Shown: positions 929 through 40,996 of the stretch, piece by piece
Layout: the number at the start of each line of letters is the position of its first letter
How positions within the stretch are numbered: the first letter of the stretch is position 1
NCBI GenBank assembly: GCA_028711115.1
Contig: JAQTSV010000001.1
Span: 646,032 to 710,031, forward strand
Length of the DNA: 64,000 nucleotides
Direction of reading: 5' to 3'
Source: Candidatus Omnitrophota bacterium
GTDB taxonomy: Bacteria; Omnitrophota; Gorgyraeia; Velamenicoccales; JABMQK01
Position numbers and translations under genes: made by a program
The notes under the pieces: generated by a model
Database searches by the model: none
What the model was told of the DNA's origin: nothing
Seen by the model: the letters and a program-made list of their open reading frames with translations, nothing else

Positions 929-1660
929 GTGAGTTTAGCTAAAGAGATAGCCGGTTGGATTAAAAAGAAAGTAAAACAAGCCAAGGCTGAAGGCGTAGTT
1001 ATAGGCTTAAGTGGCGGGATAGATTCTTCCTGTGTGGCAGTTCTTTCCAAAATGGCTTTAGGCAGTAATGTTTTGGGTTTGATTTTGCCCTGCCAAAGCG
1101 ATTCTCAAGACGAAAGGCTGGCCAGGCTTTTAGCAGATAAATTTGATATAAAAGTAGAAAAGAAGACTTTAGATCCAGTATACGAAAAGTTAAAAGAAAC
1201 TTTGCCAAAAGCAGGGAAATTGGCTATGGTTAATCTTAAACCGAGATTAAGGATGCTGACCTTGTATTATTTCGCCAATAAGATGAATTATTTGGTAGCC
1301 GGTTGCGGTAACAAAAGCGAAATTACCGTCGGTTACTTTACCAAATATGGCGACGGAGGCGCAGATATATTTCCTTTGGGAGGATTATTAAAGACAGAAG
1401 TAAGAAAATTAGCCAAGGAGTTGGGAATACCACGTGAGATTATAGAAAGAGCACCTACTGCTGGATTGTGGCAGGGTCAGACCGATGAGTCCGAGATGGG
1501 CATTACTTATGAAGATTTAGATAAGGCAATTATAGCTATAGAAAAAGGCAAGGCGCGCAGTTTATTTTCGCAGGAAATTGTCGCTAAAGTTAAGAATTTG
1601 ATACGAGTATCAGACCATAAAAGGCTGCCGATTCCCATATACGAAAAAGGCAGAAGCTAA
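929..1660 (+). CDS. nadE: NH3-dependent NAD+ synthetase
   Basis: 243-aa ORF with a GTG start preceded by AAGGAG. SGGIDSS PP-loop motif; short form without a glutaminase domain. Confidence 0.9.
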   Translation: MSLAKEIAGWIKKKVKQAKAEGVVIGLSGGIDSSCVAVLSKMALGSNVLGLILPCQSDSQDERLARLLADKFDIKVEKKTLDPVYEKLKETLPKAGKLAMVNLKPRLRMLTLYYFANKMNYLVAGCGNKSEITVGYFTKYGDGGADIFPLGGLLKTEVRKLAKELGIPREIIERAPTAGLWQGQTDESEMGITYEDLDKAIIAIEKGKARSLFSQEIVAKVKNLIRVSDHKRLPIPIYEKGRS

Positions 1661-1819: not shown

Positions 1820-3184
<1,365 letters not shown>

Positions 3185-3274: not shown

Positions 3275-3323
3275 TTAAGATTATTCCCATGCTACAATAG
3301 ACACAAAAATATAATACTATACG

Positions 3324-4835
3324 ATGGATAAAGAAAAATTAATTAACTTTTTAAAAAGAAATTGGTGGGTTTTTTTTGTAGTAATTTTTGCGGCGATAGA
3401 AGTGTATTGGATATGGCAAGTTGAATACTTGGGCTTCCAAGATCACCCCTCGCATCTTTTTAGGCTTCACGTTGTAGCTAACTACAATAATCCTCTCTAC
3501 GATTATCATAAATATTTTCTACTAAATTGGGGCTTAACACCTAATCAGGGTTCGGATATCATTGTATTCTTGCTCAGTAAGATTTTTTCTGTCCAGGTTG
3601 CAGGAAAGCTATTTTTTTGCCTTTATATTATACTTTTGCCGTTGAGTATGTGGTATTTTCTTAAGGGAGTCCGTCCAGAAAATTGTGCCTATACTCTTTT
3701 GGCAAGCGCGCTTAGCTTTAGTTATTTTGTCAAGATGGGGAATGAAAATTTCTTAAGCAGTATCCCTGTTTTTTTATTTTTCTTGGGGTATTGGTACAGG
3801 CATAGAGATAATTTCACCGTTTATACCCAGCTTACCAATAGCTTGTTGTTACTTTTCTTGTATTATTGCCACATGCTTTCATTCGTATGTGCACTAGTTA
3901 CAATAATAGCCGTATCTCTTGTTGAAAGAAAAAAGTTGCGTACTATTTTAAGGACTATTCTTGTTTCTCTGCCTGGCCTTTTTCTATTTTTCGCATGGGT
4001 AATAAGAATTATGCTGCAGGGAGCAACAAAAGAATCCGGGTTGTTGTATATAACTCCGTATTCTTCCTGGTTACATAAAGCGCGCAGCCTTACTTATGGT
4101 ATTTTTCCTTTCTCTTTTGCAACTCTTAGTGTTTCAAATATCTTGATAAGCTTATTTTTAATTCTCGTCTTCTATATGATAATTGTTGGCATCGTTTATA
4201 GATGGCGACAGGGGAAGAGAATCTGGCTGTGGGCCATAATTACTCTGACCTTCTTCGCTATAGTATTGCCGCGTGATTTTATTATATTGATGCCTGGACA
4301 ACGCATTATTTATTTGGTTTTGCTTATCGCCCCCGTTATTTTCTTAAATAAGGGAATACTGCGATTTTGTTTTCTGAGTTTTCTTATTGTTTTCACTGCT
4401 ATGGCACGTATTGATGAAACGGAATATCTTATTACGGGAGATAAAATCATTTCTTATATTGTTGCTCCTTTCAAAGAAGTTCCTCAGGTTGCAATTAACC
4501 ATCAGGAAAAGGTTTTACCGCTGGTTTTGTATCCTTACAAGGTACATCCTTTTGGCCATCGAGTATTCGAATACTACAATCTATTTAATGGCGGGGTTAA
4601 TCCCTATCATGCCATGTCTCATCTTTTTACGGTGCGTTACCGCATAAACCTGCCAGCCTCTCATATATATGAATCGAAAATAAATAGCGAAATATTTAAG
4701 GCATACGATATTATCATTGTTATCGGTAGGGATACCTATAAAGGTAAAGGGAAGGGATTATTGGATTATCTTTCGTCTATCGGTTTCAGGGAAATCAGTG
4801 GGAATGCAATTACGGCTGTCTTGAAGAAGCTATAG
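3324..4835 (+). CDS. Polytopic integral membrane protein of unknown function (possibly GT-C-like)
   Basis: 503-aa ORF with about 11-12 hydrophobic segments and a C-terminal ~130-aa soluble part. No family motif recognised with confidence. Confidence 0.7.
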   Translation: MDKEKLINFLKRNWWVFFVVIFAAIEVYWIWQVEYLGFQDHPSHLFRLHVVANYNNPLYDYHKYFLLNWGLTPNQGSDIIVFLLSKIFSVQVAGKLFFCLYIILLPLSMWYFLKGVRPENCAYTLLASALSFSYFVKMGNENFLSSIPVFLFFLGYWYRHRDNFTVYTQLTNSLLLLFLYYCHMLSFVCALVTIIAVSLVERKKLRTILRTILVSLPGLFLFFAWVIRIMLQGATKESGLLYITPYSSWLHKARSLTYGIFPFSFATLSVSNILISLFLILVFYMIIVGIVYRWRQGKRIWLWAIITLTFFAIVLPRDFIILMPGQRIIYLVLLIAPVIFLNKGILRFCFLSFLIVFTAMARIDETEYLITGDKIISYIVAPFKEVPQVAINHQEKVLPLVLYPYKVHPFGHRVFEYYNLFNGGVNPYHAMSHLFTVRYRINLPASHIYESKINSEIFKAYDIIIVIGRDTYKGKGKGLLDYLSSIGFREISGNAITAVLKKL

Positions 4836-6130: not shown

Positions 6131-7666
6131 TTAGAGTAGCGGCAAGTATTTCTTAATCTCGTGCTGTGAAATTTGGATTCGGTAATCGTCCCACTCTTTC
6201 TTTTTATTGAATAAAAACCTCGAGAATATATGTTCGCCCAAAGTATCTTTTATAAATTTACTCTTTTCCGTTTCTAAAATAGCCTCAAATAAGTTTCCCG
6301 GCAAAGCGACGAGGCCTCGGCGCTCGCGTTCTTCCATCGCCATATGATAGATATTCGGTTCGATAGGCGAGGGGATGGGGTATTTTTTCTCAATGCCTTC
6401 AAGGCCCGCTGTCAACATTACCGCAAACGCCAGATAGGGGTTGCAGGCCGGGTCCGGGCAACGCAGTTCTGCGCGAGTTGCTTTCTCATTTCCTGGCCGA
6501 TAGAGAGGAACCCTGATTAAAGCAGTGCGGTTTTTATGCGCCCAGGAAACATATACCGGCGCTTCGTATCCTGCGACCAATCTTTTATAAGAGTTTACCC
6601 ATTGAGCGGTTAAAGAAGATATTTCACGCGCGTGTTTTAATTGGCCGGCAATAAACTGCTTGGCTGTTAAAGACAAGTGGTGGCTGTCTTTGGCGTCGAA
6701 AAACGCATTGCGGTTGCCGCGAAACAGCGACTGATGGCAGTGCATGCCAGAACCAGCTACGCCAAAAATCGGCTTGGGCATAAATGTGGCATATACGCCG
6801 CTCTGCTGGGCAACTTCTTTAATCACATATTTGGAGGTAATTACGTTATCTGCCGCTTCTAATGCGCCGCAGTATTTTGGATCTATTTCATGCTGGCTGG
6901 GCGCGACTTCATGATGAGTCGCTTCCATGGTAATACCCATTTCTTCCAATATGCGCACAGTCTTATTGCGCAGCGTATCTGCCAAGTCGTTGGGAATTAA
7001 TTCAAAATAAGAACCCTCGTCGATAATTTCAGGTTTTTTATCGGTCTTAAAATAGAAGTATTCGATTTCGGGCCCTACAAAAAATGATAAACCTATTTTT
7101 TTTGCGCGTTCCAAGGCGCGTTTTAAGACGTAGCGCGGATCGCCTGCGTAGGGAGTTCTATCCGGATTAAGGATGTCGCAGAATAACCTGGCAGTGGGGT
7201 GCGTTTCCATAGTCCAGGGTAATATCTTAAAGGTATAAGGGTCTGGCTGGGCGATAATGTCGCTTTCCTCTGCCTCGGCAAATCCCGTGACAGATGAACC
7301 GTCGAAACCTTTCCCGTGTTCGAGGGCTTCCGCGAGTTCGCCTTTAGTGATAGAGACGCACTTAAGTATTCCCAATATATCCACAAACCATAGCTGTATC
7401 GTTTTTATGTTATAGCTGTCTATTTTTTTGAGGACTTCTTTTGTGGAAGACTTTTCAATCTTGACAGTCTTGGGCATATTTATCCCTGTTGCCTTTCCCA
7501 TATCTTGGGATATCTTTTTAGAGAGGAGCTGGTTTTTTGGGATTATATACTGTCTTCCTGCGCGTTCGGCAGCCAGCGTGCCATGTTTTATCCTGTCGAT
7601 GACGGCTTGACGGGAGAGTTTTAGTATTTTTGCTGCTTCCGTGGGGCTTAAGTATTCCTTTTCCAT
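6131..7666 (-). CDS. glnA: Type I (GSI-alpha-like) glutamine synthetase with N-terminal helix-turn-helix domain
   Basis: 511 aa with AAGGAG SD. Residues 1-47 resemble an excisionase/MerR-like HTH. The rest has GS motifs FFVGPEIEYFYF, HHEVAPSQHEI, GSGMHCHQSL, NSYKRLVAGYEAP, NRTALIRVP. Confidence 0.9.
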   Translation of the reverse strand: MEKEYLSPTEAAKILKLSRQAVIDRIKHGTLAAERAGRQYIIPKNQLLSKKISQDMGKATGINMPKTVKIEKSSTKEVLKKIDSYNIKTIQLWFVDILGILKCVSITKGELAEALEHGKGFDGSSVTGFAEAEESDIIAQPDPYTFKILPWTMETHPTARLFCDILNPDRTPYAGDPRYVLKRALERAKKIGLSFFVGPEIEYFYFKTDKKPEIIDEGSYFELIPNDLADTLRNKTVRILEEMGITMEATHHEVAPSQHEIDPKYCGALEAADNVITSKYVIKEVAQQSGVYATFMPKPIFGVAGSGMHCHQSLFRGNRNAFFDAKDSHHLSLTAKQFIAGQLKHAREISSLTAQWVNSYKRLVAGYEAPVYVSWAHKNRTALIRVPLYRPGNEKATRAELRCPDPACNPYLAFAVMLTAGLEGIEKKYPIPSPIEPNIYHMAMEERERRGLVALPGNLFEAILETEKSKFIKDTLGEHIFSRFLFNKKKEWDDYRIQISQHEIKKYLPLL

Positions 7667-7713
7667 TTTAGGTCTCCTTTTTTCGCGTTATATCAATTCA
7701 GTTGGTATCCTTC

Positions 7714-7729
7714 CTTTACAATTGTAAAG
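7714..7729. promoter_or_regulatory. Perfect 16-bp palindrome (putative operator O1) at the glnA -10/start site
   Basis: CTTTACAATTGTAAAG; overlaps the last 2 nt of the minus-strand -10 and the predicted +1. Confidence 0.6.
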
Positions 7730-7755
7730 TATACCATATGCTTTACAATTGTCAA
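7728..7755 (-). promoter_or_regulatory. Putative sigma70-type promoter of glnA
   Basis: Minus strand TTGACA (7755-7750), 16-nt spacer, TGgTATACT (-10 at 7733-7728), about 60 nt upstream of the ATG. Confidence 0.6.
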
Positions 7756-7756
7756 G
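7741..7756. promoter_or_regulatory. Near-perfect 16-bp palindrome (putative operator O2) over the glnA -35
   Basis: CTTTACAATTGTCAAG, one mismatch to O1, 27 bp away; contains the -35 hexamer. Confidence 0.6.
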
Positions 7757-7857
7757 TAAAATTTTTAAAATATTTTATGGGTGGTTTTTAATATAAAAAG
7801 CTGTTTTTTAAAGCCGTTTCTGTGGTATTCAAATAATTGTTAGTTATAGAATTATGC

Positions 7858-7913: not shown

Positions 7914-8615
7914 ATGCCAAAGTCTTCTTATAAATCCTATATCGACACTCTGAATAAAATCAGCACGGCAATTACCTCGGATCTTTATCTCGAAGATATG
8001 CTTAAGCTGATCGTCACATTGACAGCGAATGTGATGCAGGCAAAGATATGCGCTTTGTGGTTGTTGGACCAGGGTACTCAAGAGCTAAAAATAAGGGCCA
8101 CGCAGGCCATGAGCAGTGATTATTTAAAGGACAGGAGCCTGAAAGTAGGCGAGGGCATAGTAGGTTTGGTGGCAAAAGAAAAGAAACCCCTGGTTATCCC
8201 CGATGTTTTAAAGCACCCCAGCTATAAAGAAAAAAAGTTAGCCCATAAAGAAGGTCTGGTTTCCATGGTAAGCGTTCCCATGATGGTTAAGAATAAGGTT
8301 ATCGGTGTGATAAATTGCTATACCACTACCTCCTATAAATTTACCAAAAACGATATCAATCTTTTAGCTACAATAGCTAATCAGGCGGCAGTGGCTATAG
8401 AGAATACAGAATTGATGGTTAAGACAAAGGTGATTCAGGAAGAATTAGATGCAAGGAAGAAGATAGAGCGGGCAAAGGGGATTCTTATGAAAGAAGAGAA
8501 TCTCACAGAGGAACAGGCGTACAATTTGATAAGAAAATCCAGCATGGATAAGCGCCTTAATATGAAAGAAGTTGCAGAAGCAATCATACTTGCTTACGAA
8601 GTAAAGAAGAGCTAG
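7914..8615 (+). CDS. GAF domain - ANTAR domain RNA-binding antitermination regulator
   Basis: 233 aa. N-terminal GAF-like region (EGIVGLVAKEKKPLVIPDV...VIGVINCY). C-terminal ANTAR-like helices (IERAKGILMKEENLTEEQAYNLIRKSSMDKRLNMKEVAEAII). Confidence 0.85.
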   Translation: MPKSSYKSYIDTLNKISTAITSDLYLEDMLKLIVTLTANVMQAKICALWLLDQGTQELKIRATQAMSSDYLKDRSLKVGEGIVGLVAKEKKPLVIPDVLKHPSYKEKKLAHKEGLVSMVSVPMMVKNKVIGVINCYTTTSYKFTKNDINLLATIANQAAVAIENTELMVKTKVIQEELDARKKIERAKGILMKEENLTEEQAYNLIRKSSMDKRLNMKEVAEAIILAYEVKKS

Positions 8616-8666
8616 CTAACCGCCTTGGCGGCTTTATTTATATAACAATGATGTTAATTAGCAAAG

Positions 8667-8700
8667 AAGCTCCAAATTAAAAGCGGAGCTTTTATTTTTT
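8667..8700 (+). terminator. Intrinsic terminator after the GAF-ANTAR gene
   Basis: AAGCTCC/GGAGCTT 7-bp stem, 11-nt loop, TTATTTTTT tail. A weaker CCGC-CUUG-GCGG hairpin lies at about 8620-8640. Confidence 0.7.
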
Positions 8701-8722
8701 GGGAGAAGAATAATTTTTCAAG

Positions 8723-9376
8723 ATGTGCCAAGCAACAAAATATATATTATTGATACTGATATTTCTTAGTATTGCGAATACTGGTTTTGCCCAGAGAGAC
8801 TGGGAATATTGGACACAGGAATCGTTTTCTATTCCTATAAAAGAAGGAATCAATCTGTTGGTGTTGCCTGAATGGAAGTTTAAAGACGATATGCACGACA
8901 TATATCAATTCAAACTCGAGAACGGGATATCATTTAAGGTAAATGATTATTTTGATATAACGCCATACTATGTCTATCAAGAGAAGAAATCGAGGAATAT
9001 GTGGGACAGATCGGATCTTGTTTATCTCGATGGTACGTTTAAAGTGCCTTTAAAAAACTTTTTTAATCTCAAATTTTCTAATCGTCTGCGTTACCAGTAT
9101 GATTTTGATAAAGCCAAAACAACCTGGAGAAATACTGTTAAGATTTCCAAGGCTTTAAAAGCGGGTAAGTTAGATGTAGAGCCATATTTTAGCGAAGAGC
9201 CATTTTATGATGCGAAATTAAATAGAATAACAGAACACAGGACCACGGTAGGCATCAATTGCCCCATATCAAAAAATATTTCTTTGGCAGTAGGTTATAT
9301 GCTGGATTCAAAGAAGGGCGGGGCTAAGTGGTCATACGCAAATGTTTTGGCGAGTAATTTAAATATTAAATTCTGA
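8723..9376 (+). CDS. Putative outer-membrane beta-barrel protein (DUF2490-like)
   Basis: 217 aa with signal peptide ending FAQ, alternating amphipathic strands and a C-terminal Phe. The family assignment is from memory only. Confidence 0.5.
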   Translation: MCQATKYILLILIFLSIANTGFAQRDWEYWTQESFSIPIKEGINLLVLPEWKFKDDMHDIYQFKLENGISFKVNDYFDITPYYVYQEKKSRNMWDRSDLVYLDGTFKVPLKNFFNLKFSNRLRYQYDFDKAKTTWRNTVKISKALKAGKLDVEPYFSEEPFYDAKLNRITEHRTTVGINCPISKNISLAVGYMLDSKKGGAKWSYANVLASNLNIKF

Positions 9377-9520
9377 AAGAAATATCATGCGTGTAATTTT
9401 AGAGAATTATGTAGACAAAAATAGATAAAGGTAATATGATAGAAAAACATAAGAACAGTATTTGTGGTAGATTACAATAGGGTCAAGGTTCATTCTTCCC
9501 CATTCATTATTCATATATAA

Positions 9521-10501
9521 ATGTACTTATTATTAATTTCACTGGTTTTATTGATGGCTGCAGCTGTGGGCTGGTCCATCGGCGCTAATGATGCTGCCAA
9601 TTCTTTGGGCACGGCTGTTGGCTCAAGAGTAGTAACATTAAAACAGGCGATTATTTTAATTGTCATTTTTGGTTTTTTGGGTGCTTATCTGCAGGGTGCT
9701 TACGTAACTAAGACTATCGGCAAAGGTATTGTACCTATAAATCAGCTTGATAAGACCCTGTCTTTGTATTTGGCTTTGGTGGCTACGTTTGCTGCTTGCG
9801 CTTGGGTGGTTTTGGCGACATACTGGAAGATGCCTATCTCCACGAGCCATTCCATTGTGGGGGCAGTAGCCGGAGCAGGCATGGCAATACATGCACCAGT
9901 TAAATTTAAGATTCTGGGCGATATATTTATTTGCTGGATTTTTACACCTGTGGGCGCAGCAATTCTAGGCTATATATTCTATCTGATCTTTAAAAATATA
10001 TTTTATAGAATTATACCACGTAAATATGTAAGAGTGACTTTAGCGATGCTTATCATTATAAGCGGATGCTATGTGGCTTATAGCTGGGGAGCCAATGACG
10101 TAGCCAATGCCACAGGCGTAATTGCAGGGGCAGGAGTGCTTTCCGCTAACGTTAGCGTGATATTCGGAGGCCTGGCAATAGTTCTAGGCATTATGACATG
10201 GGGATACAAAGTCATAGAGACTATAGGTTCAGAGATTACACATCTTTTGCCGCTTATGGCATTTTCTGCGCAGTTGGCCAGCGCCATCAACGTCCATATC
10301 TATACTGTTTTTGGCATACCTGTTTCCACAAGCCATTCTATTGTAGGCGCAATTTTCGGAGTGGGATTAGTAAGAGGTGTGCGGGTATTAAATCTGCGTA
10401 TTATGAGAGAAATAATTATCTGTTGGTTGGCTACACCGTTTGTTTCCGGAATAATTAGTTTTTTAGTTCTGAAAGGTATTTTAACTTTTGTAAAAATTTG
10501 A
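9521..10501 (+). CDS. pit: Inorganic phosphate transporter, PiT family
   Basis: 326 aa, polytopic, with duplicated GANDAANS / GANDVANA signature motifs. Confidence 0.9.
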   Translation: MYLLLISLVLLMAAAVGWSIGANDAANSLGTAVGSRVVTLKQAIILIVIFGFLGAYLQGAYVTKTIGKGIVPINQLDKTLSLYLALVATFAACAWVVLATYWKMPISTSHSIVGAVAGAGMAIHAPVKFKILGDIFICWIFTPVGAAILGYIFYLIFKNIFYRIIPRKYVRVTLAMLIIISGCYVAYSWGANDVANATGVIAGAGVLSANVSVIFGGLAIVLGIMTWGYKVIETIGSEITHLLPLMAFSAQLASAINVHIYTVFGIPVSTSHSIVGAIFGVGLVRGVRVLNLRIMREIIICWLATPFVSGIISFLVLKGILTFVKI

Positions 10502-10514
10502 AAAGGGGGCCAGT

Positions 10515-11183
10515 ATGAAAGAAACGAGAAATATTTTAGGATGGCTGGGAATGGCAGAAGAGCAGTCTATCTTAAGAGATGCCCAGAAACACGTCGAGGA
10601 AACCTACAAGACAGTTACTTATTTTGCCGAAGCTATCCGCGCATTTATCGCGGGAGACATCAGCAAAAAAGCCACTGCCATTGAGAATGTAAGACAGAGT
10701 GAGCACGAGGCAGATAAATTAAGATCTAAAATGGTCAAGGAATTATCAGAAGGCTTGTTGCTGCCGCCTGACAGGGAAGACCTTATGCATTTTGTAAAGA
10801 CTTTGGATAAAATCGCTGACTGGACAAATGGTGCAGCCAGAATTCTGGGTTTTGTTGAACATAAGCCTTCAGAAAACATTCTGATGAATATATCATCAGC
10901 CACGGAATTAATTGTCACTTCCATTACAAAATTAAAAGACTCCATACACTCGCTTACAAAAAACGACCTGAAGAAAGCACTGCAGGATTGTGAAGATGTT
11001 GATCGTATAGAAAGCGAGGCAGATGACCAGAAGAAAACATTGATTGAGGCAATTATACACGCAAAGCTGGAACCCACATCGCTTTTGTTATGCTATCAGT
11101 TAGCCGAATACCTGGAAGGCGTGACCGATAAGATAGAAGATGCCGCGGATTTTGTTAAGGTTTTGGCCATTAAGTCAAAATAA
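10515..11183 (+). CDS. DUF47 / PhoU-like phosphate-transport accessory protein
   Basis: 222-aa all-helical protein immediately after pit, with EADKLR and ESEADD repeats typical of the DUF47 family. Confidence 0.8.
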   Translation: MKETRNILGWLGMAEEQSILRDAQKHVEETYKTVTYFAEAIRAFIAGDISKKATAIENVRQSEHEADKLRSKMVKELSEGLLLPPDREDLMHFVKTLDKIADWTNGAARILGFVEHKPSENILMNISSATELIVTSITKLKDSIHSLTKNDLKKALQDCEDVDRIESEADDQKKTLIEAIIHAKLEPTSLLLCYQLAEYLEGVTDKIEDAADFVKVLAIKSK

Positions 11184-11432
11184 AGAGTTGTTGAGTTATT
11201 TGTTTTAAGCAACACAACTGATATTGTCAGTTCAATATGAGAATGATTTCTCCTGAGATTTGGTTTCCCCCCTGCCGTTTATTAGTCCAGATGCTAAAAG
11301 CTGCATTAAGAGATATCTACCCTTTGTCTATATCTGTTCTATTACTTGTTAAAATAAATAAGCGCATGAAATTAAATTACCAGCTTGCAGGCAATTTTAA
11401 GCCAGCCAAAATAATATTGGAGGGGTTTTAGA

Positions 11433-12950
11433 ATGACAAATAAGATAGGATTTGATAATGAAAAATATCTCAAGGAGCAAACAGCGGCTATTTTAGAAAG
11501 AGTAGAGAGATTTAACAATAAATTATATCTGGAATTTGGGGGAAAAATTATTTTTGATTATCATGCCTCGCGGGTCCTGCCAGGTTTTGACCCTAATGTC
11601 AAGATGAAACTATTGAAGAAATTGAGCAACAAAGCCGATATTATACTTTGCATTTATGCTGGAGACATAGAGCGGAAAAAACTGAGAGCGGATTTCGGAA
11701 TTACTTATGATGTGGATGCGCTAAAGTTGATCGATGATTTAAAAGAACGGGGTGTTCAGATTAGTGCAGTGGTTATTACTCGTTTTGAAGATCAGCCGGC
11801 AGCCAAGATATTCAAGAATAAGTTAGAGCGCCGGCATATAAAAGTACATACCCACAGGTTGATAAAAGGATATCCTGTTGAAGTAGATGCTATTGTCAGC
11901 GACGAAGGATACGGACAGAATAGTTATATTGAAACCGAGAATCCTTTGGTTATAGTTACCGCCCCTGGGCCGGGCAGTGGAAAGCTATCCACTTGTCTTT
12001 CGCAGTTATACCACGATTATAAAAGAGGCAAGAAATCCGGTTATGCCAAATTTGAAACATTTCCCATCTGGAATATACCGCTCAAGCATCCTGTTAATGT
12101 GGCCTATGAAGCGGCTACCGCAGATATCAGAGATTTTAATCTTATCGATCCTTTTCATCTGGAAGCATACAATGAAACAACCATTAACTACAACCGCGAT
12201 GTGGAAATATTCCCTTTGCTGCGCAGGATATTGGAAAAGATTACCGGTTCAGAAGCACCATATAAATCTCCTACGGATATGGGAGTGAATCGCGCCGGCT
12301 TCGGCATCATCGATGATGAAGTGATTCAGGAGGCAGCAAAACAAGAGGTCATTCGCCGGTTCTTTAATTATTCTTATGAATATGCCATGGGTTTCGTGGA
12401 TAAGGAGACAATACAGCGTGTAGAACTGCTTATGGAAGAGCTCAGTGTCAAACCTGAGAATCGGCGCGTAGTAAGTTTTGCACGTCAGGCCGCTAAAGAT
12501 GCAGAGAAGAATAAAAAAGGTAATGAAGGAATTTATTGCGGCGCAGCCATAGAATTGAAAGACGGCTCGATCATTACAGGAAAAAATTCTCCTTTAATGC
12601 ATGCAACCTCCAGCCTTGTGTTGAATGCCATAAAACATCTGGCAGAAATTCCCGACAAGATACATCTTTTGTCACTCAGCACCATAGAATCAATCAGAAA
12701 ACTTAAAGAAAATATCTCTAGTAAAAAGATAGTCAGTTTGAATTTAGAAGAGGCGCTGATTGCCTTAAGTATAAGCGCAGCGGCAAATCCTACTGCGCAG
12801 TTAGCAATGGAGAAATTAAAGGAGCTTCAGGGTTGTGAAGTGCACATGACACACATACCTACCCCGGGAGATGAGGCAGGATTAAGAAGATTAGGCGTTA
12901 ATATTACCATTGAGCCAAACTTTTCTTCCCAGTGGCTCTTCGTATCATAA
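11433..12950 (+). CDS. UPF0371 / DUF1846 family protein (function unknown)
   Basis: 505 aa with GGAGGGG SD. The N-terminus [20 protein letters not shown] and the overall length match my recollection of UPF0371 proteins. Confidence 0.75.
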
Positions 12951-12971
12951 TAACATCATGGAGGTGGAGTA

Positions 12972-14420
12972 ATGAGCGGAATTTTCGGTGTAGTCTCTAA
13001 AGATGATTGTGCGGAGATTCTTTTTTATGGCACGGATTATCATTCACATTTGGGCACCGAATACGGCGGAATGGCGGTGTTCGGGAAACAATTCAGCCGG
13101 CAGATACATAATATCAGCCAGAGCCAGTTTAAATCCAAGTTTTTCGACGACTATAAACACATGAAAGGCAACAAAGGTATCGGTGCGATTAGCGCCTCTG
13201 ATGAACAACCGATTTATCTTAATTCAAGGCTGGGCCCGTTCTGTGTAGTGACCAACGGATTTATAGAAAACAGCGAAGAATTAATGTCTCAGCTGCTGAA
13301 GAAGGGTGATTCTTTCAGCGAAGTCAGCAGAGACAAGGTTAATACCAGCGAGCTCGTTGCTAAATTAATCAGCCAGGGTGATGACATAATCGATGGCATA
13401 GAAAAGATGTTTACAATGATTAAAGGTTCCTGTTCGCTTTTACTGCTTAATAGTGAAGGGGTCTATGCAGCCAGAGACAGGTATGGCTATACGCCCTTGA
13501 TAGCAGGAAGGCGTCAGGACACCTGGGCGGTGACTTCTGAGACGAGCGCTTTTCCCAACAGCGAATTCGAAACGGTCAAATATCTCGGCCCGGGAGAAAT
13601 AATATTTATAAATGAAAGCGGCATGACAGAGAAAAAGGCCGCAGGAAAGACTAATCAGATTTGCGCCTTTCTTTGGATATACACCGGTTTTCCCGCTTCT
13701 AATTACGAAGGTATTAATGTAGAGATTGTAAGAGAAATGTGCGGCCGCTGTTTAGCAAAACACGACAAAGATATAGATGTGGATGTTGTCTCCGGAGTTC
13801 CTGATTCAGGAATCGCCCATGCCATAGGCTATGCCATGGAGTCAAAGAAACCATATAGGAGGCCGCTGGTAAAATATACGCCCGGCTATGGCAGAAGCTA
13901 TACTCCTCCGTCGCAAAAGACGCGTGATTTAATAGCCAAGATGAAACTTGTACCCATAAAAGATATAATTAAGGGCAATAGAATTGTAGTGTGCGAAGAT
14001 TCAATAGTAAGAGGCACGCAGCTCAAGAATTTCGCCATAAAGAAATTATGGGATTGCGGTGCCAAGGAAATTCACGTAAGGCCAGCATGTCCGCCTCTTA
14101 TGTTTCCCTGCAGATTCAATCTTTCCACGCGCACCATACACGAACTTGCTGCCCGCCTGGCTATCCGCAGTCTGGAAGGCCAGGATTTGGAAGACGTCCT
14201 AGAATATGTCGATCACACCACCAATAAATACAAGAAGATGGTGGATTGGATTTGCCGTGATTTAGGAGTTACCACGTTACGATATCAGACTATAGACGAT
14301 ATGGTAAAAGCTATAGGCCTACCCAAAGACAAGCTTTGTCTATATTGTTGGACTGGCCAATGTCCTGCATCAAAAGATTCAGATATAAAAAAAGAGACCA
14401 AAAGAGCCTGTGTGGTTTAA
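12972..14420 (+). CDS. Amidophosphoribosyltransferase (PurF)-like protein with non-canonical N-terminal domain
   Basis: 482 aa with GGAGGTGGAG SD. PRPP loop VVCEDSIVRGTQ, VPDSGIAHAIGYA, and Cys pattern resembling [4Fe-4S] PurF (CAFLWIY, PCRF, CLYC). The N-terminus is MSGIFG instead of MCGI(V/F)G. Confidence 0.8.
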   Translation: MSGIFGVVSKDDCAEILFYGTDYHSHLGTEYGGMAVFGKQFSRQIHNISQSQFKSKFFDDYKHMKGNKGIGAISASDEQPIYLNSRLGPFCVVTNGFIENSEELMSQLLKKGDSFSEVSRDKVNTSELVAKLISQGDDIIDGIEKMFTMIKGSCSLLLLNSEGVYAARDRYGYTPLIAGRRQDTWAVTSETSAFPNSEFETVKYLGPGEIIFINESGMTEKKAAGKTNQICAFLWIYTGFPASNYEGINVEIVREMCGRCLAKHDKDIDVDVVSGVPDSGIAHAIGYAMESKKPYRRPLVKYTPGYGRSYTPPSQKTRDLIAKMKLVPIKDIIKGNRIVVCEDSIVRGTQLKNFAIKKLWDCGAKEIHVRPACPPLMFPCRFNLSTRTIHELAARLAIRSLEGQDLEDVLEYVDHTTNKYKKMVDWICRDLGVTTLRYQTIDDMVKAIGLPKDKLCLYCWTGQCPASKDSDIKKETKRACVV

Positions 14421-14453: not shown

Positions 14454-15371
14454 ATGAAAATGAAGAGGAAGATTGTCTTTATTGTAGGGCCTACGGCATC
14501 GGGAAAGACTAAGCACGCCCTGAAATTAGCCAAAAAGATAGGCGGAGAAATTATTTCCTGTGATTCAATGCAGGTTTACAGAGGATTGAATATTCTGAGC
14601 TGTAAGCCGTCTCGCAAGGAAAGAAAACAGGTAAAACACCATTTGATTGATATCATTAATCCCGATGATGATTTCAATGTCAGTAAATTCATAAAATTAA
14701 GCAGCCAATCAATAGAGAAAATTCACAGTAAAGGTAAGATTCCTATTTTTGCCGGCGGGACAGGATTGTATGCCGAGTCTCTATTGAACGGACTTTTCCA
14801 GGGCCCCGCAGCCAACCCTAAAATAAGAACAGGGCTTTATGAAAAAGCAAAAGCCTATGGCAGCAGTTATCTTTATAAAAGATTAAAAAAGATCGATCCT
14901 CAGGCCGCAGATAAAATCCATCCTCATGATTTAAGAAGAATTGTAAGGGCGCTTGAGGTTTATCAAGTTACGCATAAACCAATCACCAAATTACAGACAC
15001 ACAGAAGCGGCCTCGCTCAAGAGAAACGTTTTAAAAACTATATTTTTGGTCTTATTATGCCCAGAGAAAAATTATACACAATGATAGATGAGCGGGTTGA
15101 TGAGATGTTTAGACAAGGCGTAGTTAAAGAGGTATCAGGTTTATTAAGGAAGAAGTGTTCCCAGACGTTTAAGCAGGCTTTGGGAATCAGAGAAATTAAT
15201 TCGTATCTAAAAGGAGAGATTGATCTGGAAGAAGCAAAGCGTCTGTTAAAACGCAATACGCGCAGATATGCCAAGAGGCAAATGACGTGGTTTAAAAAGA
15301 ATCGCAGAGTCCGGTGGTTAGATAAAGGGATTTCCGGAAATTTAAAAGAGATGACAAAGGCAATTGTTTAA
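14454..15371 (+). CDS. miaA: tRNA dimethylallyltransferase
   Basis: 305 aa with GPTASGKT P-loop and DSMQVYRGLNI motif. Confidence 0.92.
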   Translation: MKMKRKIVFIVGPTASGKTKHALKLAKKIGGEIISCDSMQVYRGLNILSCKPSRKERKQVKHHLIDIINPDDDFNVSKFIKLSSQSIEKIHSKGKIPIFAGGTGLYAESLLNGLFQGPAANPKIRTGLYEKAKAYGSSYLYKRLKKIDPQAADKIHPHDLRRIVRALEVYQVTHKPITKLQTHRSGLAQEKRFKNYIFGLIMPREKLYTMIDERVDEMFRQGVVKEVSGLLRKKCSQTFKQALGIREINSYLKGEIDLEEAKRLLKRNTRRYAKRQMTWFKKNRRVRWLDKGISGNLKEMTKAIV

Positions 15372-40674: not shown

Positions 40675-40747
40675 GCCCTCGTAGCTCAGTAGGAAGAGCA
40701 CGTCCTTGGTAAGGACGGGGTCATCGGTTCAATTCCGATCGGGGGCT
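40675..40747 (+). tRNA. tRNA-Thr (anticodon GGU)
   Basis: Hand-folded 73-nt cloverleaf: acceptor GCCCTCG/CGGGGGC, anticodon arm CGTCC-TTGGTAA-GGACG, T-loop TTCAATT. No encoded CCA. Confidence 0.9.
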
Positions 40748-40925: not shown

Positions 40926-40996
40926 AGGAGCGTCGGTTAACGGTAAACCAACGGTCTCCAAAACCGTTACTGCGGGTTCAATTCCTGCCGCTCCTG
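40926..40996 (+). tRNA. tRNA-Trp (anticodon CCA)
   Basis: Hand-folded 71-nt cloverleaf: acceptor AGGAGCG/CGCTCCT, anticodon arm ACGGT-CTCCAAA-ACCGT, T-loop TTCAATT. Confidence 0.85.

Follow-up and report, generated by a model that had tools for sequence, protein, structure and literature searches.

A 64,000-nt stretch of the genome of a Candidatus Omnitrophota bacterium (GenBank assembly GCA_028711115.1, contig JAQTSV010000001.1, positions 646,032 to 710,031; hereafter the window) was found to carry, in tandem, two genes of nucleotide synthesis whose products appear to be independent of glutamine. The first gene, pyrJ, belongs to the DUF1846/UPF0371 family and is predicted to encode an ammonia-only cytidine triphosphate (CTP) synthase. 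The second, here designated purF', encodes a paralogue of PurF, the amidophosphoribosyltransferase known from textbooks for the committed step of purine synthesis, which depends on glutamine; the enzyme is also a drug target. To judge from its residues and a structural model, PurF' is a complete PurF fold unable to use glutamine, and represents an as yet uncharacterised form of a known enzyme. The cysteine-less form of PurF constitutes a large and well conserved family, annotated simply as 'amidophosphoribosyltransferase', and the central question is whether these proteins are natural ammonia-only amidotransferases or not.

The explanation of the locus that we favour, and hold to be somewhat better than evenly likely, is that the two genes would encode housekeeping glutamine-independent nucleotide enzymes and not a dedicated two-enzyme system. 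PyrJ would produce CTP from uridine triphosphate (UTP), adenosine triphosphate (ATP) and free ammonia, PurF' would produce phosphoribosylamine from phosphoribosyl pyrophosphate (PRPP) and free ammonia, and the proximity of the genes would reflect the clustering of nucleotide and nitrogen genes in this lineage. In the lineage of the window, a phosphate-transport cassette separates pyrJ from an ANTAR-type leader.

PurF' sequence, fold and operons

PurF' has the N-terminus MSGIFGV, and its Pfam matches are to class-II amidotransferase models only. Against the purF model TIGR01134 it scored 222 bits, under the cut-off of 350, the canonical purF product of one related locus (L003; L numbers denote related loci) scoring 483. 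There is no room for a longer N-terminus that might hide a cysteine, since the pyrJ stop codon lies in frame with the purF' start, 21 nt upstream. The original prediction had described an altered amidotransferase domain, and the alteration is real, the glutaminase site being completely lost: on alignment with Bacillus subtilis PurF (1GPH/1AO0), Cys1 is replaced by Ser and Arg26 by Leu, Asp127 is missing, and the glutamine loop with Arg73-Tyr74 is deleted in a gap of 8 residues. The PRPP loop (EDSIVRGTQL), the flexible loop (GRSYTPPSQ..R..K) and the Fe-S cysteines show little or no variation among members 34–65% identical, and the four [4Fe-4S] cysteines of the B. subtilis type are conserved in the window protein as C231, C380, C456 and C459. 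An AlphaFold (AF2) model built from a 37-sequence alignment had a mean predicted local distance difference test (pLDDT) score of 92.8 and was matched by Foldseek to B. subtilis PurF 1AO0 with template modelling (TM) scores of 0.82/0.87 at 30% identity. The two proteins thus have in common the two-domain fold, the PRPP loop, the flexible loop, the four cluster cysteines and an occurrence in pur operons, while PurF' differs from the B. subtilis enzyme in the glutaminase residues and the shortened loop listed above.

Of 79 family sequences taken from related loci, 78 have Ser as residue 1, and all of the top 120 database matches (120/120) begin MSG. One close member, from candidate division NPL-UPA2 (L013, 1852-3309), begins MNGIFGV and has Asn at this position. 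When the family was followed by a cluster-representative search down to about 35% identity, residue 1 was Ser, Thr, Gly, Ala, Asp or Lys. Such variation means that residue 1 does not serve as a nucleophile, nor is the N-terminal domain a hydrolase of the N-terminal nucleophile (Ntn) type; Ser1 was rejected as an Ntn-type nucleophile on the same grounds, together with the Asn of the one close member. The position of Asn101 is likewise variable (N47/S20/G3/C3/A2 among the same 79 sequences), whereas TDYHSHLGTE and the PRPP loop are invariant in them. Conservation of PurF' across phyla was considered as a special property and dismissed: in 25 genomes with both PurF' and canonical PurF it amounts to 80.6%, equal to that of canonical PurF (80.9%) and PurM (80.4%).

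A remodelled N-terminal domain, with Ser1 and TDYHSHLGTE, might instead support new chemistry, either handling another nitrogen donor or recruiting and deprotonating the ammonium ion, and feed the PRPP site. The strong purifying selection on this domain and the family-specific invariant motif at the former glutamine pocket speak for such a role. Variation at residue 1 and at the oxyanion-hole Asn makes hydrolysis of the Ntn type unlikely, however, and no neighbouring gene suggests a different donor, so that we regard new chemistry as quite improbable.

A scan of GTDB genomes gave 280 stretches encoding close PurF' relatives, of which the best 80, with 73–80% identity, were kept as loci. These 80 come from Omnitrophota, Planctomycetota, Elusimicrobiota and others. 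The commonest gene order among them, canonical Cys1 purF-purM-purF', was present in 27, and carB adjoins purF' in eight. The family thus clusters with purine genes, but not in the window itself. In Phycisphaerae/Sedimentisphaerales the operon consists of purF (Cys1, with propeptide), purM, purF' and a gene for a conserved 340-aa membrane protein without NCBIfam match; it was seen in L003 (3383-7488), L007, L009 and about 24 other loci.

More distant members occupy the purF position on their own. The protein P0286 belongs to a cluster (90% clustering) of 3,295 members, whose representative P0137 is 43% identical to the window PurF' and shares TDYHSHLG. In L177/L178 (4783-13425), P0286 takes the place of X in the complete operon purE-purC-X-purM-purN-purO-purH-purD-purL, with a divergent pyrC-pyrK-pyrD-pyrF-pyrE operon beside it. 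The start codon for P0286 overlaps the stop codon of purC (TAATG), and the protein has no cysteine in alignment with Cys1. Another PurF' member lies directly 3' of purL, in a locus whose protein cluster includes a metagenome-assembled genome (MAG) of Muribaculaceae. In L170 (1-6527), purF' directly follows genes for alanine dehydrogenase and a YheCD-type ATP-grasp protein, and a classical pyrG (CTP_synth_N + GATase) lies 4 kb upstream.

Since PurF' takes the purF slot, keeps the PRPP-side residues and has lost the glutaminase residues, it is most simply read as an ammonia-dependent PRPP amidotransferase. We consider it probable, with moderate confidence, that PurF' is catalytic and would form phosphoribosylamine from PRPP and free ammonia. 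Glutaminase-free enzymes that carry out the same amidation with free ammonia, often encoded beside the glutamine-dependent form, are familiar from the pairs PyrG/PyrJ, AsnB/AsnA and long/short NadE. Unlike for these pairs, we know of no natural ammonia-only PurF that has been demonstrated. Mutants of Escherichia coli PurF at Cys1 lose the use of glutamine and keep that of ammonia (Mei & Zalkin 1989, as cited in PMC3261824). For a cysteine-less PurF' encoded beside purF in crenarchaea, dependence on ammonia has been put forward as an untested proposal (Brown et al. 2011, Biol Direct 6:63, PMC3261824). By its published description, the archaeal protein resembles the present family in the missing N-terminal Cys, the clustering with purF or other pur genes and the ammonia proposal. 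The family described here differs in being bacterial (it includes Omnitrophota, Planctomycetota and Elusimicrobiota, as well as protein clusters that comprise Muribaculaceae and other gut-metagenome lineages), in its TDYHSHLG motif and in being apparently the only purF-type operon gene in some lineages.

Alternatively, PurF' could be a silent regulatory or scaffolding partner of canonical PurF, comparable to HisZ with HisG, which tunes it or hands off the unstable phosphoribosylamine. This would agree with the loss of every glutaminase residue, with the 27 of 80 loci in which purF' shares an operon with canonical Cys1 purF and with the high conservation of an N-terminal domain devoid of catalytic residues. 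Nucleotide inhibitors of PurF, moreover, bind in or near the PRPP site, so retention of that site does not prove catalysis. Against a silent partner, an abundant gut lineage has PurF' as the sole occupant of the purF position in a complete pur operon, neither the window nor L165 nor most Omnitrophota loci carry purF' next to purF, and the catalytic residues of the flexible and PRPP loops of PurF' are invariant down to about 35% identity. We therefore consider a silent partner unlikely, and retain the ammonia-dependent amidotransferase as the preferred reading of PurF'.

PyrJ and its neighbours

The N- and C-terminal DUF1846 domains were detected in the window PyrJ with E-values of 1e-169 and 2e-55 (563.8 and 187.5 bits, Pfam cut-offs 27). 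The protein passes the NCBIfam equivalog PRK13663 (774 bits, cut-off 631), and PDB entry 7F00 (Streptococcus pneumoniae SPD_0310 homologue) matched its residues 4-499 end-to-end (528 bits, E 1.6e-157). In S. pneumoniae, pyrG and the gene for the DUF1846 protein Spd_0310 form a synthetic lethal pair whose double mutant is rescued by cytidine, and purified Spd_0310, renamed PyrJ, converts UTP to CTP with ammonia and not with glutamine (bioRxiv 10.1101/2024.09.24.614635). The statement of the original prediction that the DUF1846 protein has no known function is outdated by this 2024 preprint. On sequence grounds the window protein is PyrJ, a new member of the just-described family and a predicted ammonia-only CTP synthase. 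It shares with Spd_0310 (structures 7F00, 3BH1) the two-domain DUF1846 architecture, the length and the equivalog-level match. It differs in its origin, an uncultured Omnitrophota MAG, with an activity that is predicted, and in the gene neighbourhood, as the window and related loci place pyrJ near carB, glutamine synthetase (GS), glutamate dehydrogenase (GDH) and ANTAR genes.

The pyrJ side was surveyed in 80 metagenome loci with close PyrJ relatives among the matches listed; L165 is outside that listing. In about eight of these 80, carB or carAB adjoins pyrJ, a recurrent adjacency that gives independent genomic support for a pyrimidine role of PyrJ. The order carA-carB-purF(Cys1)-pyrJ was observed in L112 (1-6506), and carB or carAB also lies beside pyrJ in L081, L119, L120, L127, L146 and L158.

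The ORF coordinates, the 21-nt and 249-nt gaps and the Shine-Dalgarno (SD) sites on which the original prediction of a two-gene operon was based were all confirmed from the sequence, the SD sites being GGAGGGG 5' of pyrJ and GGAGGTGGAG 5' of purF'. Co-transcription of pyrJ and purF' is probable, the same order of these two nucleotide-synthesis genes being found in L165 and in four GTDB species, and it probably extends to miaA. In the closest relative found, L165, PyrJ is 86% and PurF' 81% identical to the window proteins, and the order pyrJ-purF'-miaA-kinase-regulator is kept. Elsewhere the adjacency of DUF1846 and PurF-like genes, which had been offered as a check, is not generally conserved. 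Counted by estimate, pyrJ stands in tandem before purF' in 4 of 74 purF' loci with room upstream (L029, L042, L045, L060) and convergently in one (L006), and among the matches listed on the pyrJ side no tandem Ser-type purF' was found in 51 loci with at least 1.5 kb downstream, where one distant purF' is convergent. In L029, L045 and L060 (for example L029, 1130-12336), the genes are arranged as carB-pyrJ-purF'-hisG-TPR-transketolase(N)-transketolase(C)-ispE, a grouping of PRPP- and pentose-phosphate-linked genes. The pairing is real in the window's own lineage and sporadic elsewhere, and looks like general clustering of nucleotide genes, not like an obligate partnership.

These counts bear on a dedicated system, in which PurF' would deliver ammonia to PyrJ or both would serve an undescribed nucleotide or cofactor step. 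The tight tandem with strong SD sites in the window, its recurrence in L165 and four GTDB species, and a PyrJ without a glutaminase of its own could all be taken to favour it. The rarity of the tandem runs counter to it, as do the commoner partners (purF/purM and carB for purF'; carB, GDH and GS for pyrJ) and the short gaps, which are typical of a compact, one-strand genome. Nor does PurF' hold any residue for releasing ammonia from glutamine; with all glutaminase residues missing it cannot be a glutaminase partner for PyrJ, and this candidate role was rejected. A dedicated system is thus very improbable, and two separate housekeeping enzymes remain our reading of the tandem. By our own ORF picking, the + strand carries 60 of the 64 window ORFs with a length of 80 aa or more, the gaps are mostly short, and gaps of 247, 248 and 266 nt occur elsewhere in the window. 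Against this background the 249-nt gap and the short gaps are ordinary.

GS, GDH or GAF-ANTAR genes were found near pyrJ in the window and in L165, L131, L144, L148, L119, L157, L159 and L029. Gene order is GS-ANTAR-GDH-pyrJ in L131, and GS-ANTAR-leader-two glutamate-synthase-like genes-GDH-pyrJ in L144 and L148. This link of pyrJ to GS, GDH and ANTAR genes is independent genomic support for the function of PyrJ. In the window GDH adjoins a gene for a NAD synthetase (NadE) in which no glutaminase domain was detected by Pfam, a third glutaminase-free amidation enzyme within the same 14 kb; the short form of NadE uses ammonia rather than glutamine. Three amidation steps with glutaminase-free enzymes (NadE, PyrJ, PurF') beside ammonia-assimilation genes make a coherent, if circumstantial, picture, and equally circumstantially suggest an anaerobe that uses free ammonia directly and spares the ATP cost of passing nitrogen through glutamine.

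The GS promoter region (window 7700-7760, - strand; TTGACA-16-TATACT) contains a perfect 16-bp palindrome, CTTTACAATTGTAAAG, and a second half-site, both conserved between the window and L165 (2395-2470). The palindrome may be an autoregulatory operator.

Table 1 Features of the window at and around pyrJ and purF' (positions are those of the window).
Feature	Position	Strand	Remarks
pyrJ (DUF1846/UPF0371), predicted ammonia-dependent CTP synthase	11433..12950	+	505 aa; Pfam, NCBIfam, PDB match
pyrJ-purF' junction, 21 nt, SD GGAGGTGGAG	12951..12971	+	read from sequence
purF', cysteine-less PurF paralogue; PRPP site and Fe-S cysteines intact, glutaminase site dead	12972..14420	+	482 aa
miaA, co-directional, 33 nt 3' of purF'	14454..15371	+	purF'-miaA order also in L165, L011
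249-nt spacer, PhoU_div gene to pyrJ	11184..11432	+	no structured or conserved element detected
DUF2490 - PHO4 phosphate transporter - PhoU_div cassette	8723..11183	+	between ANTAR leader and pyrJ; not at this position in L165
Intrinsic terminator, 5' arm overlaps P2	8665..8700	+	9-bp stem 8665-8673/8685-8693 and U-run
ANTAR-target-like dual hairpin P1/P2	8643..8671	+	motif and homology to L165 pyrJ leader
GAF-ANTAR RNA-binding antiterminator gene	7914..8615	+	Pfam GAF and ANTAR; directly 5' of pyrJ in L165
Glutamine synthetase with N-terminal HTH_17 domain	6131..7666	-	kept in L165, 79% identity
Glutamate dehydrogenase	1838..3184	+	nitrogen-assimilation context
Short NAD synthetase (NadE), 243 aa, synthetase domain only	929..1660	+	Pfam NAD_synthase E 6e-77

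The 249-nt spacer and the ANTAR-type leader

The 249-nt region upstream of pyrJ had been described as having no convincing ORF, no consensus promoter and imperfect hairpins only, and this description was borne out. The only ORF in 11184-11432, of 64 aa, was rejected as a gene as it has no homologue. Neither a consensus promoter nor a terminator was found on the + strand, and the imperfect hairpin reported earlier is present. An extended -10 candidate, TGTTAAAAT (11347-11355), could possibly give pyrJ its own promoter, for which transcription is predicted to begin near 11362.

The accompanying idea of a riboswitch-type leader failed. A new riboswitch or other cis-regulatory RNA controlling pyrJ-purF' would be compatible with the length of the region and with the absence of a consensus promoter from it, but a scan of the region with Rfam models at E up to 10 gave a best E of 2.5, far below any gathering score, and the scan of the whole window at gathering score placed no match in it. 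Its fold is no more stable than that of shuffled sequences (z +0.34). Searches of 160 related loci by blastn and nhmmer returned no homologue, the only other copies being 100% identical and hence without covariation signal, and the region showed no similarity to the L165 pyrJ leader on local alignment (score 19, shuffles 17.5±2.4). In relatives, pyrJ is preceded by gaps of anything from -26 to 987 nt that have no sequence in common: when 34 regions upstream of pyrJ were compared with one another by all-against-all blastn, no element proved to be shared, and Rfam found tRNAs only in 17 related loci with long gaps, three of the long gaps holding a tRNA gene. A riboswitch here is extremely improbable, and the 249-nt region is a lineage-specific spacer, the junction on the far side of the phosphate-transport cassette. 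The only Rfam matches at gathering level in the whole window are two tRNA genes (40675-40747 and 40926-40996), located in a 790-nt gap 5' of a nusG/ribosomal-protein/rpoBC cluster.

A leader of a different kind was located about 2.7 kb 5' of pyrJ, directly after the GAF-ANTAR gene, which ends at 8615. ANTAR targets consist of two hairpins of at least 3 bp, with hexaloops that carry A at position 1 and G at position 4 and a short linker, and are as a rule associated with nitrogen metabolism (Ramesh et al. 2012, PMC3369931). At 8643-8700 dual hexaloop hairpins, an overlap of the second hairpin with a terminator and a nearby ANTAR gene were all found: P1 is TAAC-AATGAT-GTTA, the linker ATT and P2 AGC-AAAGAA-GCT, A and G occupy positions 1 and 4 of both hexaloops, and the terminator folds with -13 kcal/mol (z -2.63 relative to shuffles). 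The spacer at 11184-11432 holds no dual hexaloop with terminator, only one 3-bp hairpin of a type expected by chance at 4.4 per kb.

In L165 the phosphate-transport cassette is not interposed, and a leader of 156 nt is all that separates the GAF-ANTAR gene from pyrJ downstream of it. This leader (element 3302-3355) has two short hairpins whose hexaloops, AAAGGC and AAAGAA, again show A and G at positions 1 and 4. A strong intrinsic terminator, called by the terminator scan (fold z -3.39), shares part of its 5' arm with the second hairpin. Local alignment of window 8616-8722 with the L165 pyrJ leader scored 53, as against 16±2.3 for shuffles, and the P1 stem of L165 differs in sequence from that of the window yet still pairs. 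The case for an ANTAR target thus has three supports, namely its overlap with the terminator, its location next to the ANTAR gene and its conservation in one relative. Comparison of these sequences indicates that the ancestral leader of the pyrJ-purF' operon is an ANTAR dual-hairpin/terminator element, and it is predicted to be under ANTAR control. With no obvious terminator from the PhoU_div gene to pyrJ, read-through from the putatively ANTAR-controlled unit into pyrJ is possible in the window.

The element is akin to the antitermination leaders of EutV, NasR and AmiR (PMC3369931) in its two A..G.. hexaloop hairpins, the second of which overlaps the 5' arm of a terminator, in the ANTAR protein encoded next door and in the nitrogen-metabolism context. 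It differs from them in that the sensor is a GAF domain and not a receiver or NIT domain, in the genes downstream (pyrJ-purF' in L165, the phosphate-transport cassette in the window) and in the stems of the putative target, of only 3–5 bp.

Other GAF-ANTAR genes are followed by a conserved hairpin GGAC/AGAC-AAAGRC-GTCC/GTCT (L131, 3447-3495; L144, 1121-1155; L148, 1070-1083). This single-hexaloop variant precedes GDH or glutamate-synthase-like genes; two of its copies, those of L131 and L144, lie downstream of a TTGACA-17-TAnnnT promoter and overlap a terminator at its 5' arm.

Proposed glutamine-independent amidation in anaerobes

Taken at its broadest, the locus would exemplify a family of natural ammonia-only PRPP amidotransferases, the only PurF in some anaerobes including abundant gut lineages. 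Here PurF' would form, with PyrJ and short NadE, a glutamine-independent amidation set that is co-located with GS and GDH and was ancestrally switched by a GAF-ANTAR protein according to nitrogen status. To this reading as a whole we give tentative credence, a little short of even.

Several observations weigh against the favoured explanation of the locus. The Phycisphaerae purF', in an operon with canonical purF, fits a regulatory or heteromeric partner equally well as an isozyme. The dead N-terminal domain of PurF' has a mean pairwise identity of 74%, a conservation not expected of a vestigial domain, and it may bind something. Literature searches returned no biochemical report on a bacterial cysteine-less PurF and no enzymology for any PurF'. 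The adjacency frequencies of pyrJ and purF' are estimates only, taken on the pyrJ side among the matches listed and without L165. ANTAR control, finally, rests on one relative and motif logic, and loose matches to the dual hairpin number about 19 in the window by chance.

Nucleotide amidation genes are suggested here as a previously unreported class of ANTAR-controlled target. If PurF' does act on free ammonia, purine synthesis in many anaerobes would be off the glutamine pool, as CTP synthesis is via PyrJ, and metabolic reconstructions of Omnitrophota, Planctomycetota, gut Bacteroidales and Clostridia would change. The puzzle of the archaeal PurF', open since 2011, would then be explained as well.

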